DNA of 64,000 bases from Candidatus Saccharimonadales bacterium (GTDB lineage: Bacteria > Patescibacteriota > Saccharimonadia > Saccharimonadales > OMJO01): the NCBI GenBank assembly GCA_038216175.1, contig JBBQQG010000003.1:450-64449 (forward strand), written 5' to 3'. Below are positions 20,097 to 23,980 of this stretch, in pieces. Each line of letters begins with the position of its first letter. The stretch's first letter is position 1. A model generated the notes under the pieces. It searched no databases, was not told the DNA's origin, and saw only the letters and a program-made list of their open reading frames with translations. The position numbers were made by a program, and so were the translations under genes.

Positions 20097-20678
20097 ATGA
20101 ATAGCCAGGATTTATTCTCGAACATTATAAAAATAGTTGATCAGTGCATTAGGCAAGTTAGTAATGATCAGCTTACAAATAAGACCCCTTGTAAAGATTG
20201 GGATCTAAGAGAACTACTCAGGCATATAGTCTACGAACTACTTTGGGTCAGCGAATTAATTAATGGCAAGACTGTTGAAGAAGTTGGTGATCGATTTGAC
20301 GGAGATATTTTAGGAAGCGATATACAAGGAGCATGGGAACGTGCCAGTCACTTAGCGCTTAGCTCAGTTCAAACGGCCCAGCTGGATTCTATAGTTCATT
20401 TGTCATATGCCGATGTATCGGCCGAAAAATATATTAGAGAAATTGCCGGCGACGTCTTAATCCATGGCTGGGACGTTGATCAGAGCATTATGTGTAATAT
20501 GTTAATCCCCGACGATATTGCACAAGCAGTATATAATGACATTTTTCCGCGAAAACAGGAATTTGCTGACAGCGGATTATTTGGAACAGAGATAATTGTT
20601 GACAGTGATTCATCAATTCAATCAAAACTACTTGGACTGGTGGGGAGAAAAGTAACGTATAAAATTAACGATGACTAG
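20097..20678 (+). CDS. TIGR03086-type metal-binding protein (MDMPI/DinB superfamily)
   Basis: TPCKDWDLRELLRH, IHGWDV, LLGLVGR. Confidence 0.85.
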   Translation: MNSQDLFSNIIKIVDQCIRQVSNDQLTNKTPCKDWDLRELLRHIVYELLWVSELINGKTVEEVGDRFDGDILGSDIQGAWERASHLALSSVQTAQLDSIVHLSYADVSAEKYIREIAGDVLIHGWDVDQSIMCNMLIPDDIAQAVYNDIFPRKQEFADSGLFGTEIIVDSDSSIQSKLLGLVGRKVTYKINDD

Positions 20679-21396
20679 GATTGTCTGTGCCGAAGACATA
20701 AAAAAATTGGGCACAATACTTTCAATCTGGGCTCATCCAGATGATGAATCATTCAGTTGTGCTGGAATAATGTCGGCAGCTATATCTAATGGCCAGAAAG
20801 TAATTTGTGTTACTGCAACAAAAGGTGAGCTTGGAGTGCAAGATGAATCCCGTTGGCCAGCTGATAAACTAGGCGACATTCGTACATTGGAGCTGGAAGC
20901 AGCATTAGTTAAGTTAGGCATCGCCGAACATATTTGGCTGAAATATGAAGATGGCAACTGTTGCAATGCTAATTTTGATCAGGCTATAAGCCAGATCAGA
21001 GAAATTATTGAACAGTATAAGCCAGATACAATCTTAACGTTTGGACCAGATGGGATGACAGGACATTTAGATCATCAAACTGTATCGAAATGGGTCGATG
21101 TTGCAGCTGGAGATAGCGATATAAATATATACCACGCCGTCGAAGAAGAAGAAAGATACCTAAACGTTATGCTGGAAGCCGATAAAAAATTCAACATCTA
21201 TTTTAATATTGATAAGCCACCGACGCTGCCGAAAGATAAATGTGATATTGCAATAATACTTGAAGGCGAACTTCTCAAAAATAAAATAGAATCATTGAAA
21301 TTAATGCCGTCGCAAACAGAAAGAATGTTTAATACCACTCCAGCTGAAACAATGGCTGAAATTTTAGGTCAAGAGTATTTCATTTTAGTTAAATAG
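20671..21396 (+). CDS. PIG-L/LmbE family deacetylase
   Basis: AHPDDE, ATKGELG, TFGPDGMTGHLDH. Confidence 0.88.
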   Translation: MTRIVCAEDIKKLGTILSIWAHPDDESFSCAGIMSAAISNGQKVICVTATKGELGVQDESRWPADKLGDIRTLELEAALVKLGIAEHIWLKYEDGNCCNANFDQAISQIREIIEQYKPDTILTFGPDGMTGHLDHQTVSKWVDVAAGDSDINIYHAVEEEERYLNVMLEADKKFNIYFNIDKPPTLPKDKCDIAIILEGELLKNKIESLKLMPSQTERMFNTTPAETMAEILGQEYFILVK

Positions 21397-21937
21397 GTTT
21401 ATCTTTAAAACCGATTAAAAAGCCTACATAGCTTAGTAATAAATGAAGGCCGAAGTAGATTACGAAAATCATTAATATTGTTTGCAGCCGCAGGTGTATT
21501 AATATCAGTAAAAATGCCAGGCCTCCGATAATATAGTCGATCTGATCAAAAGGGAACCAACTATTTCCAGAAGTTATGCCGATTCTTCTTTTAAAAAAAC
21601 TCTCTACAGCATCGCCTAGCAGTGCACCAAAACCAATTAGCCCTCCCGCCAAAAAGCTGATCAATATGCCGTGAGTCGTAAACGTTCTTCCACTTAGATA
21701 TGCAACTTCTAAAAAACAAGTCAGCGCCGCTGCGCCCACCCCGAAAACCAGACCGCGCCAAGTCTTATGGTCTCCTAAAATACGTTTTCCTCCGATTGTT
21801 TTTTTTAGATCTATAGGTGTTGTCCAGCGATTTAAAATAGGTATTTTGTTGGCTATAGGAGGGGCCATATTTGCAATCCCAGCTGGCAAAAATATCCAAA
21901 AAGCTAAGTAGACATCGTTATATGTCAGCCAGTTCAT
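21389..21937 (-). CDS. CarS-like CDP-archaeol/CDP-diglyceride synthase family membrane protein
   Basis: ANMAP, PID, GDHKTWRG, GDAVESFFKRR, FPFDQIDY. Confidence 0.85.
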   Translation of the reverse strand: MNWLTYNDVYLAFWIFLPAGIANMAPPIANKIPILNRWTTPIDLKKTIGGKRILGDHKTWRGLVFGVGAAALTCFLEVAYLSGRTFTTHGILISFLAGGLIGFGALLGDAVESFFKRRIGITSGNSWFPFDQIDYIIGGLAFLLILIHLRLQTILMIFVIYFGLHLLLSYVGFLIGFKDKPI

Positions 21938-22587
21938 CTTATTTTCCCTATTTTTTTTCTTAACCTGTGATATTTAGGATAAAGTAGCGATCTTACTGTT
22001 GGACGGGTTGCTATTGGCGTACCCGTGTTCAATTGATCGATAAGCGTGTTTCGATTTGGCATTTCTTTAGTCTGCGTATATGACTTACCTAAACCATGAA
22101 TACCATGAGCGTCGCTGCTTGATACTCCAGTTTTACGATTAAGTTTTGACCAGACAACTGCTGGCGCGCTCTTGTTCTGAGCAAATGCTCGACCGTTATA
22201 AATTTCTATTATATCTATGTGGTCGGATATCTCTTCTAAAATACTAGGATGCAATCCTTTTCTAATTGTCTCGAATGGATGGGGGATATATACTAGCCCG
22301 TCTTGAGCATTTATTTGTAAGACTGTTTCGATTGGACTTAAACCAGCTGAGATGGCTTTCGTCAGATATAAACCGATAATTTCGCCGGCAGCAGTCATTA
22401 TTTCCTCTCCAACGATTATATGATCACCTAATTCCTTTTGAAGGCGCGTCGCAAAATCTATCGTGTTATGATCGGTTATTGCAATAAGATCAAGTTCTCC
22501 TCGGTCTATAATATTTCTATATTGCTCGGTGTTAATCCCGCCATCGGCCGATAATTCAGAATGAGTATGCAGATCAACCTTATACAT
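21934..22587 (-). CDS. PHP-domain phosphoesterase
   Basis: DLHTHS, ITDHN, GEEI, PHPF, SSDAH. Confidence 0.88.
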   Translation of the reverse strand: MYKVDLHTHSELSADGGINTEQYRNIIDRGELDLIAITDHNTIDFATRLQKELGDHIIVGEEIMTAAGEIIGLYLTKAISAGLSPIETVLQINAQDGLVYIPHPFETIRKGLHPSILEEISDHIDIIEIYNGRAFAQNKSAPAVVWSKLNRKTGVSSSDAHGIHGLGKSYTQTKEMPNRNTLIDQLNTGTPIATRPTVRSLLYPKYHRLRKKIGKIR

Positions 22588-23206
22588 TTTTTAATTTACT
22601 AGTTATAGTAATTAATCTTTGAAGGGCAGTTAGACTTGCTGTTAAAGCTATAAATACAACTGCTATCATTAAACGATTAAATATGAGCCCAACTATTAGT
22701 ACAACCATACGAACTTCAAATCGCATTATGCCGTCTTGAAACAACCGGTTTACTTCTGAAGTTGTTAAGCTGCTTTTAGCAACCGCCGTTTCCCCTTTGG
22801 CTTTAACGTAGCTTACTGATAAGCTGGCACCGCAAGCTACAACCGCCCATACAGCCAGAAGCGGCCTAGAGCTGTTAATAATTGCGAAGGCCGCACCTGA
22901 ATAAAGCATTACTTCTTTAAATCTATCTGTACTGGCATCGAGAAGCATTCCAATTGGACTATCACGTTTTTGCAACCGGGCTAGTTCGCCGTCTAAGCTG
23001 TCAAATAGGCCGAATATAATTAGTAGGATTGCAGCCACAATATTATTTTTGTATGCAATTAATACAGCGATAGGTATGTGAGCCAGTAAACCGACAATTG
23101 TTACGCTGTTAGGAGTGATTTTTCCACCGCTAATTTTATTTAAGATTTTGGCTATTCGCCCCATTATTCGACGGACAAAACTTCTGATTGCGTCGGGTAG
23201 AGTCAT
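22580..23206 (-). CDS. CDP-alcohol phosphatidyltransferase
   Basis: TPNSVT and signature DSLDGELAR..G.LLDASTDR. Confidence 0.9.
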   Translation of the reverse strand: MTLPDAIRSFVRRIMGRIAKILNKISGGKITPNSVTIVGLLAHIPIAVLIAYKNNIVAAILLIIFGLFDSLDGELARLQKRDSPIGMLLDASTDRFKEVMLYSGAAFAIINSSRPLLAVWAVVACGASLSVSYVKAKGETAVAKSSLTTSEVNRLFQDGIMRFEVRMVVLIVGLIFNRLMIAVVFIALTASLTALQRLITITSKLKNV

Positions 23207-23266
23207 AAAAACATTATACGGTGTTTTTATTATTTTGGATTAGTCATTAAATTTCGAAGTGAAACA

Positions 23267-23980
23267 ATGTTAGCGCCGCTAATATATACTTTATATATTA
23301 TGGTCAGTATTCCATTGTTCCTGCGTGGTCGGTACTCGGGAGTAATTAAAGCATTAGTGCTATCAAACTTCATGAGTCTAGTTTTGCTTATTATAAAGAT
23401 GATAAGCACTCATTCTTGGGTTTACCTATATTTGTCATGGAATATATTTTTAGCCTGGCTGTGCCTGCTTTTTGCTTACGGATTGACGGTACATTTAAAA
23501 AATGGCTTATGGAGAAGTTGGCAGGCAGTAGCACTTTGCATACTTTGGTTAGGTTTTTTACCCAACAGTTTTTACCTGAGCACTGATTTAATGCACCTTC
23601 GAAATTCAACTGCTTCGACCGTGCTATTTGATGTCACACTTTTTGTACTATTTATGTTTAATGGCTTCGTTAGCGGTATATGGAGTACATTTCTGGTACA
23701 CTCGGCGCTTCTAAAAAGATTTAAAAGTATTTATTGCCATATTTTTATAGTATTAGTCCTGATTAGTTGCAGCTTTGGAATATTTCTCGGTCGCAGTCTG
23801 CGCTGGAACACATGGGACGTAATTATCAACCCGGCCGGATTATTGTTCGATATTTCTGATAGCTTTATAAATCCGTCGGCCCACCCACAGGCTTTTGTTA
23901 CTACGACTACCTTTTTTATATTAATTGGCAGTGTATATTATGTCGTTTGGAAGCTTGTTAAAGCCCTGCAGTCCAACTAG
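23267..23980 (+). CDS. DUF1361-family membrane protein
   Basis: WNIFLAW, WLGFLPNSFYLSTDLMHL, GRSLRWNTWD. Confidence 0.8.
   Translation: MLAPLIYTLYIMVSIPLFLRGRYSGVIKALVLSNFMSLVLLIIKMISTHSWVYLYLSWNIFLAWLCLLFAYGLTVHLKNGLWRSWQAVALCILWLGFLPNSFYLSTDLMHLRNSTASTVLFDVTLFVLFMFNGFVSGIWSTFLVHSALLKRFKSIYCHIFIVLVLISCSFGIFLGRSLRWNTWDVIINPAGLLFDISDSFINPSAHPQAFVTTTTFFILIGSVYYVVWKLVKALQSN

Follow-up and report, generated by a model that had tools for sequence, protein, structure and literature searches.

Why the gene for a small soluble phosphoesterase should lie between, and overlap with, the genes for two membrane enzymes of lipid synthesis is the question raised by a locus of a Candidatus Saccharimonadales bacterium (GenBank assembly GCA_038216175.1). 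The window that we analyzed, 64,000 nucleotides in length, corresponds to positions 450-64449 of contig C3 (JBBQQG010000003.1) in a 1.36-Mb, 162-contig assembly that is 96.65% complete and 0.39% contaminated. Three genes on its minus strand encode a CDP-alcohol phosphatidyltransferase (PT), a stand-alone phosphoesterase of the PHP family and a CarS-like cytidylyltransferase. We propose that together they probably make phosphatidylinositol (PI) from scavenged lipid in this Saccharibacterium, and that the PHP protein would supply the phosphatase of the last step. The closest relatives by the PHP gene are metagenome-assembled genomes (MAGs) titled Saccharibacteria or Saccharimonadales. The features of the locus, in window positions, are as follows.

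22580-23206, minus strand: PT, 208 amino acids (aa); predicted phosphatidylinositol-phosphate (PIP) synthase of the type of archaetidylinositol-phosphate (AIP) and PIP synthases
21934-22587, minus strand: stand-alone PHP/PHP_C phosphoesterase, 217 aa; predicted PIP (lipid head-group phosphate) phosphatase
21389-21937, minus strand: CarS-like integral-membrane cytidylyltransferase (CDP-archaeol synthase family), 182 aa; predicted CTP:phosphatidate cytidylyltransferase
23207-23266, minus strand: intergenic region upstream of PT, common to the divergent DUF1361 gene, with promoter-like hexamers

The PT and PHP genes overlap by 8 bp (22580-22587, ATGTATAA), and the PHP and CarS-like genes overlap by 4 bp (ATGA, 21934-21937). 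An initial annotation, made from the sequence alone, had described three overlapping genes of one strand with intact family motifs at 21389-23206, and the exact limits, both overlaps and the Pfam families all agreed with that description. When related loci were compared using longest open reading frames (ORFs) as estimates, most PT-to-PHP junctions fell between -8 and +3 nt, and most PHP-to-CarS junctions were overlaps of 8 or 4 nt. That the three genes form a single, translationally coupled operon is part of what we consider the best explanation of the locus. Upstream of PT, a weak promoter-like element, TCGAAA-17-AATAAT, was found on the minus strand at 23257-23229 by a scan whose 10 promoter-like sites fell short of the 12.9 expected from shuffled sequence, and a TATAAT can be read from the sequence at 23218-23213, 6 nt ahead of the PT ATG. 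The scan for promoters and terminators was at or below shuffle expectation, and we gave no weight to its sites.

The association of the three genes was conserved well beyond this genome. In a sample of 401 genomes drawn evenly from the phylum, PHP-like proteins were found in 69 genomes, CarS-like proteins in 73 and PT-like proteins in 74. Close PHP orthologues (E <= 1e-46) were present in 9 of the 401, belonging to 9 different families. PT adjoined the PHP gene in all nine, co-directionally in five and divergently in four, and CarS followed it in eight; in the ninth, the contig is 2.2 kb long and ends 36 bases from the PHP gene. Distant PHP proteins of about 270-290 aa were unlinked, as in genomes G254, G387 and G011, where CarS and PT lie on other contigs.

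We also scanned one-genome-per-species contigs with an alignment of PHP orthologues, which gave at least 600 stretches, at least 535 of them encoding relatives, and kept the best 80 loci, including one from an unpublished genome (G443, locus L090). The synteny counts refer to the 79 of these that carry a whole PHP ORF, related genomes included. CarS was located downstream of PHP on the same strand in 75 of the 79 loci, within 150 bp in 66 of them and after a gap of about 1 kb in 9; of the other four, L103 is rearranged and has CarS upstream, and three are truncated at contig ends. PT was located upstream of PHP in 73 loci (54 co-directional, 19 divergent), and among the six without it one began at a contig start and five were real cases (L080, L085, L086, L092 and L101). 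The MAGs that contributed loci bear the titles Saccharibacteria, Levybacteria, Doudnabacteria or Microgenomates, and a few have other labels. The flanking genes differ among these groups, suggesting that the trio has been kept through rearrangement. The initial annotation had staked its proposal on the PHP gene being conserved beside the lipid genes, and these counts bear it out.

The strongest argument for the function of the PHP protein came from loci in which its place is taken by something else. Genome G151, which belongs to the same order and has a PT 52% identical to ours, carries no PHP gene; its operon reads HAD - PT - CarS - MIPS, where MIPS is myo-inositol-phosphate synthase (TIGR03450, inositol-3-phosphate synthase, 352 bits). 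The HAD protein belongs to the YqeG/PgpP type, with 79 bits for TIGR01668 (cut-off 89) and 41 bits for PF09419, 'PGP phosphatase' (cut-off 20), PGP being phosphatidylglycerol phosphate. The experiments described in PMC11804483 established PgpP/YqeG as the PGP phosphatase of Firmicutes. The same gene order was found in 7 of 7 metagenome loci of the G151 lineage, whose HAD proteins are all close relatives (85-99% identical) and which therefore represent one lineage and no independent support. In G118, a calcineurin-like phosphoesterase (L045:3522-4190, minus strand; PF12850, 41 bits) lies between a divergent PT gene and CarS, at the position occupied by PHP elsewhere, including in G096 of the same family. 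Thus, three unrelated phosphoesterase folds occur at one operon position beside the same two membrane enzymes, suggesting that this slot holds the phosphatase of the pathway. The initial annotation had named the PHP protein as an undescribed phosphatase for PGP or PIP; the synteny, the replacements in the slot and the search for canonical Pgp enzymes described below support this assignment, the function itself being predicted.

Genes added to the cluster were also of lipid or inositol metabolism. MIPS was found inside 5 of the best 80 loci, and two of the five were confirmed by Pfam. In 7 of the 9 loci with a gap between PHP and CarS, the gap holds a homologous protein of about 305 aa; two of the seven were scanned and both were lipid kinases of the YegS/Rv2252/DAGK_cat type. 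Judged by family, such a kinase would provide phosphatidic acid, on which the next enzyme acts. A bacteriorhodopsin-like gene (L027:7881-8615, plus strand; PF01036, 158 bits) was observed directly upstream of the HAD-PT-CarS-MIPS operon of G151, in divergent orientation.

The PHP protein has the profile match, the barrel fold and the conserved metal-ligand-type residues of its family. It scored 26.4 bits against PF02811, exactly at the cut-off of 26.4, and 21.6 bits against PHP_C, PF13263 (cut-off 21.3). Its residues were compared with what we take to be the canonical list of His, Asp and Glu metal ligands: H7, H9, D15, H40, E62, H103, D159 and H161 were invariant in 83 orthologues, and E61 was kept in at least 90% of them. 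N131 and R133 were invariant as well. An AlphaFold2 model built with the 83 orthologues (pLDDT 95.9, pTM 0.92) retrieved only PHP folds in Foldseek, at E 1e-10; the matches were RNase AM (7ug9), TM0559 (2anu, TMq 0.69), BVU_3505, PsfC and the nucleotide bisphosphate phosphatase Cv1693 (2yb1). A hydropathy scan found no hydrophobic segment. At the C-terminus, the model shows a helix at residues 203-216, the net charge of the last 22 residues averages +5.8 among orthologues, and the basic amphipathic character of this tail is conserved. Such a helix may serve as a peripheral membrane anchor.

Homologues of the PHP protein are numerous, with 2912 proteins at E <= 1e-10 among 3348 candidates, and their source names, where given, are 'TrpH' or 'PHP domain-containing' only. 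The ESM Atlas holds clusters of PHP+PHP_C proteins of 212-219 aa that are labelled Verrucomicrobiota and Chloroflexota. Neither Pfam nor NCBIfam matched the protein to PgpA, PAP2 or HAD, which places it outside the known families of lipid head-group phosphatases. If it dephosphorylates PIP, it would represent a further class, unrelated to PgpA, PgpB/PAP2, PgpC and the PgpP HAD enzymes.

The assignment of PT rests on its signature, its profile scores and its predicted phosphate-binding residues. The signature of class I CDP-alcohol phosphatidyltransferases, D1xxD2G1xxAR...G2xxxD3xxxD4 as set out in PMC4634129, is intact in PT (D69 xx D72 G73 xx A76 R77 ... G86 xxx D90 xxx D94), and together with a PF01066 score of 50.3 bits (cut-off 22) it places PT in this class. 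In 76 orthologues, D69, D72, G73, G86, D90 and D94 were invariant, A76 was kept in 75 and R77 in 71. A simple hydropathy scan gave 5 hydrophobic segments, for a family with about six transmembrane helices. The best NCBIfam matches were AIP synthase (NF040950, 103.4 bits, cut-off 180) and PIP synthase (NF045883, 85 bits, cut-off 170), about 5-fold above pgsA (19.7 bits). All 7 best solved relatives were AF2299 or enzymes that use inositol phosphate, namely the PIP synthases of M. kansasii, R. salmoninarum and M. tuberculosis and DIPP synthase, and no PgsA structure appeared among the solved relatives at E <= 0.01.

In MtPgsA1, the PIP synthase of M. tuberculosis, the phosphate of inositol phosphate is held by R94, S132, K135, R155 and R195, according to the accounts in PMC4634129 and PMC6506517. 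A HMMER alignment puts R95, S132 (with Y133, which aligns with Y133 of MtPgsA1), K135, R166 and R197 of PT at the equivalent positions, so that the phosphate-binding set of PIP synthase appears, by alignment, to be present. R166 and R197 were invariant in the 76 orthologues, R95, S132 and Y133 were kept in at least 90%, and the K135 position held K, R or N.

A soluble route like that of DIPP synthase, from CDP-inositol and inositol phosphate, was considered and rejected because the cytidylyltransferase of the locus is of the membrane CarS/CdsA type and the DIPPS model gave only 56 bits. PT-like domains within open frames of 468-493 aa were observed in four other genomes (G215:C19:8700-9257, G230:C1:12518-13021, G061:C2:4388-4909 and G183:C2:75142-75495); these may be fused cytidylyltransferase-transferases of the IPCT/DIPPS or CDP-inositol type.

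The CarS-like protein matched PF01864 over the whole length of the family (100.2 bits, cut-off 22; profile positions 6-173 of 175), and its residues 21-181 aligned with Aeropyrum CarS (5GUF) at E 5.9e-14. Four hydrophobic segments were found by hydropathy scan. Its match to the CdsA family, PF01148, was 27.4 bits and covered profile positions 169-230 of 264 only; a full-length CdsA match failed, with 24.2 bits for NF008635 against a cut-off of 385. To go by sequence, the protein may work like CdsA though it is not a member of that family. No PF01148 match was found in our genome outside the CarS-like gene, and in five relatives (G186, G087, G277, G233 and G151) the sole PF01148 match was again within the CarS-like ORF. 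None of these six genomes therefore showed a cdsA beyond CarS, as the initial annotation had expected. Its claim that an archaeal-type enzyme would stand in the place of CdsA is supported as well, the CarS-like gene being the only gene of the CdsA superfamily found in the genome; the use of diacyl phosphatidic acid as substrate is what we infer for it. In five sister-family genomes that lack CarS, CdsA was not found either.

Further families were searched in five genomes, our own and four relatives carrying the operon. The search for geranylgeranylglyceryl phosphate (GGGP) synthase (PcrB) found it in none of the five, which disfavors an endogenous ether-lipid substrate for the CarS-like enzyme. 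PlsY was found in 0 of 5 and a PlsC-type acyltransferase in 1 of 5, not our own, and a DAGK_cat lipid kinase was present in 4 of 5. The initial annotation had also made its case depend on canonical pgp genes being absent, and this held in part: none of the five genomes yielded PgpA, and tblastn found no PgpP-like HAD in our genome, but two good PAP2 matches were present there. Their best NCBIfam matches were undecaprenyl-diphosphatases (54-64 bits), with 29-33 bits for PgpB.

One PAP2 gene of our genome (C19:16807-17516; L005:1318-2723), best matched by SepP, overlaps by 4 bp with the gene for a MamU/YegS-type lipid kinase. The two could be a pair that interconverts diacylglycerol and phosphatidic acid and feeds the operon. 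Our genome contains two further PF01066 PTs, on contigs C18 and C14; the one on C18 is more pgsA-like, with pgsA as its best match (39 bits). The third PT, on C14 (L029:3192-5869), is divergent, 205 aa long, with 25.9 bits for PF01066 and no NCBIfam match. It adjoins genes for a PfkB-family sugar kinase, with weak matches to IolC and ribokinase, and a class II fructose-bisphosphate aldolase; that this kinase makes inositol phosphate in a genome without MIPS is speculative.

The acceptor alcohol of PT was approached through MIPS. Searches for MIPS were positive for 22 operon genomes out of 80 (15 of 50 plus 7 of 30) against 11 of 401 in the phylum sample, an enrichment of about ten-fold; because the operon genomes are related and not independent, this is a tendency and not a test. 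MIPS was present in all five genomes whose PHP-CarS pair lacks an adjoining PT. In the MIPS regions of 7 genomes, searched for the PT that is missing from beside such PHP-CarS pairs, HMMs found no PT or PHP. Four genomes of the same order (G063, G218, G305 and G318) have MIPS, and CarS-like, PT and PHP orthologues were not found in them with these queries. With MIPS in the G151 operon, in 5 of 80 loci and in 22 of 80 genomes, inositol phosphate is, on context, most likely the acceptor of PT, and the head group would thus most likely be inositol phosphate, giving PI, and not glycerol phosphate, giving phosphatidylglycerol (PG). The initial annotation had allowed for either product. The PI half of this claim is favored by AIP and PIP synthase scores far above that of pgsA and by the retained inositol-phosphate residues; the PG half is not.

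Several results weigh against the synthesis of PI by this operon. MIPS was not found in our own genome (PF07994, PF01658 and tblastn with the MIPS of a relative), and the acceptor alcohol is therefore not secured for it; nor was MIPS found in 58 of the 80 operon genomes, MAGs whose completeness is not given. PT scored below the NCBIfam equivalog cut-offs for both PIP and AIP synthase, and the CarS-like protein reached 131.4 bits for NF003114 (CDP-archaeol synthase), under the equivalog cut-off of 148. Archaeal CarS, moreover, reportedly prefers an ether-lipid substrate. None of the solved relatives of the PHP protein acts on a lipid, the nearest being RNase AM, a pAp phosphatase and uncharacterised proteins, and we know of no member of the PHP family that acts on a lipid head group. 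With two PAP2 proteins encoded elsewhere in our genome, a PgpB-type lipid phosphatase is possible. The wider neighborhood is also conserved in Saccharimonadales, with GroEL, PGI, DUF1361 and ArgRS in the flanks, so that these loci are not independent and much of their synteny may be inherited. Finally, most CarS+PT pairs in other Patescibacteria have no adjoining phosphatase, and the PHP type occurs in only about 8 of the 73 CarS-bearing genomes of the phylum sample. In another group of Patescibacteria, CarS-like and PT genes are found in a ribosomal-protein cluster: loci L030-L037 (G264, G133, G112, G171, G278, G153, G090 and G235) have the order nusG - CarS - rplK - PT - rplA, with NusG, L11 and L1 confirmed by Pfam at L030 and without an adjoining phosphatase.

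These points leave room for other explanations, of which an unlikely but serious one accepts CarS-like and PT as a lipid module and gives the PHP protein another task. It might supply inositol phosphate by cleaving a phosphodiester or cyclic phosphate of host origin, remove by-products of the PPi, CMP or pAp type, or act as an RNase AM-like nuclease, and the PIP phosphatase would then be a PAP2 protein, such as the two in our genome, or some other enzyme. The nearest solved relatives, a 5'-3' exoribonuclease, a nucleotide bisphosphate phosphatase and uncharacterised proteins, fit such a task, as do the names under which homologues are filed, and the many operon genomes without MIPS need a source of inositol phosphate. 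Levybacteria-type loci, however, have PHP and MIPS in one cluster, which argues that PHP is no substitute for MIPS, and in G151 the slot is taken by a family proven to act on a lipid head group. The lack of linkage to CarS or PT among the distant PHP proteins of about 270-290 aa and the conserved basic amphipathic tail of the 217-aa type also speak against a task away from the lipid.

The operon might instead make PG, with PT as a PGP synthase acting on glycerol-3-phosphate and PHP as the PGP phosphatase, which we consider distinctly improbable. Glycerol-3-phosphate is always available, including to our genome and the 58 operon genomes without MIPS, the phosphate-binding arginines of PT would also suit glycerol phosphate, and the HAD protein in the PHP slot of G151 belongs to a family whose proven substrate is PGP. 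Because PgpA was found in none of the five genomes and no PgpP-like protein was found in ours, a PGP phosphatase would be needed if PG were made. Against this, pgsA scored 19.7 bits where AIP synthase scored 103 and PIP synthase 85, no PgsA structure was among the solved relatives of PT, and MIPS lies in the operon of the G151 lineage and in 5 of 80 loci and is enriched about ten-fold in operon genomes. A separate and more pgsA-like PT on C18 (pgsA, 39 bits) would in addition be at hand for PGP.

A pathway for archaeal-type or isoprenoid lipids, in which CarS would make CDP-archaeol from archaeal or self-made ether lipid and PT would make archaetidylinositol phosphate, is highly improbable: it has in its favor that the best models are archaeal (CarS NF003114, 131 bits; AIP synthase, up to 149 bits for Levybacteria-type PTs), that archaeal CarS is said to select ether lipids and that G205 encodes a polyprenyl synthetase (L044:4247-5293, minus strand; PF00348, 220 bits) between CarS and rplK, a hint that the CarS-like enzyme of some Patescibacteria may be linked to isoprenoid metabolism, but none of the 5 operon genomes searched yielded a GGGP synthase, a diacylglycerol or lipid kinase lies inside the cluster in 7 loci, and the known hosts of cultured Saccharibacteria, as described in PMC6031116 and PMC11880426, are Actinobacteria, makers of diacyl PI.

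In the pathway to PI that we prefer, phosphatidic acid or diacylglycerol would come from the host and not from de novo synthesis, possibly by way of a YegS/DagK-type kinase encoded elsewhere in the genome. The CarS-like enzyme, in CdsA's stead, would use CTP to convert phosphatidic acid to CDP-diacylglycerol, a step for which the family was identified and the substrate is predicted. PT, for which both the family and the residues were identified, would then form PIP and CMP from CDP-diacylglycerol and myo-inositol phosphate, these substrates being suggested by context. The soluble PHP metallo-phosphoesterase, which its basic C-terminal helix probably tethers to the membrane, would remove the head-group phosphate from PIP to yield PI. 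Lineages with MIPS would obtain inositol phosphate from glucose-6-phosphate; our genome would take it from outside or make it by means of an unrecognised enzyme.

The neighbors of the operon were also inspected. A gene for a PIG-L family deacetylase (20671-21396, plus strand) converges on the operon and shares 8 bp with the 3' end of CarS. The protein scored 108 bits against PF02585, with weak matches to BshB, MshB and Mca, and 18 of 79 related loci have a PIG-L homologue close to CarS. The gene that precedes it encodes a TIGR03086/MDMPI_N protein of the 'mycothiol-dependent' type (20097-20678, plus strand). PIG-L enzymes deacetylate GlcNAc-PI or GlcNAc-inositol. The PIG-L neighbor could carry out a next step on PI or could salvage inositol from the mycothiol of the host. 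On the other side, a DUF1361 integral membrane protein with 6 hydrophobic segments and no NCBIfam match is encoded divergently from PT (23267-23980, plus strand). Among the 79 related loci, 31 have a DUF1361 gene ahead of PT, and this gene may belong to the system.

Taken together, we give about an even chance to a broader proposal. In this proposal, the 217-aa PHP subfamily is a new class of phospholipid head-group phosphatase, acting on PIP and perhaps PGP, and the first PHP enzyme to act on a membrane lipid. With CarS and an AIP-like PT it would form a portable cassette that gives Patescibacteria without fatty-acid synthesis PI made from host lipid, and PIG-L might process this PI to glucosaminyl-PI (GlcN-PI) or a glycolipid like the PI-mannosides. 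If true, the PHP protein would be a concrete candidate for the PIP phosphatase, the last step of prokaryotic PI synthesis: a small soluble protein that should be easy to express, tied to PIP synthase by operon conservation across several Patescibacteria classes. These bacteria showed no CDP-lipid synthase other than the CarS-type enzyme, which is usually treated as an archaeal marker. This is relevant to the interpretation of 'archaeal' lipid genes in bacterial genomes, and the operon as a whole bears on the remodelling of host lipid by lipid-auxotrophic epibionts.

The synthesis of PI in Saccharibacteria has already been predicted, and what is new within the literature searched is the PHP phosphatase: the steps are known and the enzymes are non-orthologous. 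Starr et al. (2018; PMC6031116) predicted from annotation a route from phosphatidic acid through CDP-diacylglycerol and PI to PI-mannosides in a soil Saccharibacterium; its passages on this route give no phosphatase step and name no cytidylyltransferase family, and its main text contains the word 'archaeol' 0 times. Villanueva 2020 mentions only GGGPS/DGGGPS in a Parcubacterium. Our literature search, which covered PMC6031116 and PMC11804483 apart from their supplements, found no paper that ties a PHP protein to PIP or presents CarS as the CDP-lipid synthase of Patescibacteria. In the relevant passages of PMC4634129, PMC6506517 and PMC9385802, the PIP phosphatase of Actinobacteria and Archaea is called unidentified. 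That of Bacteroides, the only one known from these papers, is a PgpA-type protein according to PMC9246714, and the paper on PgpP (PMC11804483) states that a further class of PGP phosphatase is to be expected.

Among known systems, the two-step PI pathway of bacteria (M. tuberculosis PgsA1; Bacteroides BT_1523 and BT_1525) follows the route that is predicted for the operon described here, from CDP-diacylglycerol and inositol phosphate to PIP and then PI. Its transferase is of the same CDP-alcohol phosphatidyltransferase class with the same phosphate-binding residues, and its genes are clustered, sometimes with MIPS. It differs in that the phosphatase is PgpA (BT_1525) instead of a PHP-fold protein and the CDP-lipid synthase is CdsA instead of CarS; most carriers of the operon, moreover, are without MIPS and without fatty-acid or phosphatidic acid synthesis. 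Archaeal CarS and AIP synthase, the models on which both membrane proteins score best, catalyze consecutive steps in archaea, where the AIP phosphatase is itself unidentified. Here, in contrast, the organism is bacterial, no GGGP synthase was found in the five genomes searched, the lipid is likely diacyl and the scores lie under the equivalog cut-offs. The HAD-type PGP phosphatases PgpP (YqeG) and Gep4 share the role predicted for PHP, that of a soluble phosphatase following a CDP-alcohol transferase, and a PgpP-type protein sits in the PHP slot of the G151 lineage; their mechanism proceeds through an aspartyl-phosphate whereas PHP enzymes use a metal cluster, and our PHP protein has no HAD match. 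TrpH/RNase AM, the 3',5'-nucleotide bisphosphate phosphatase Cv1693, TM0559 and HisJ have the fold and the His/Asp/Glu metal-ligand set in common with it, but the PHP protein of this operon stands apart from them as a shorter, single-domain protein of 217 aa with a basic C-terminal helix and a strict linkage to membrane lipid genes.

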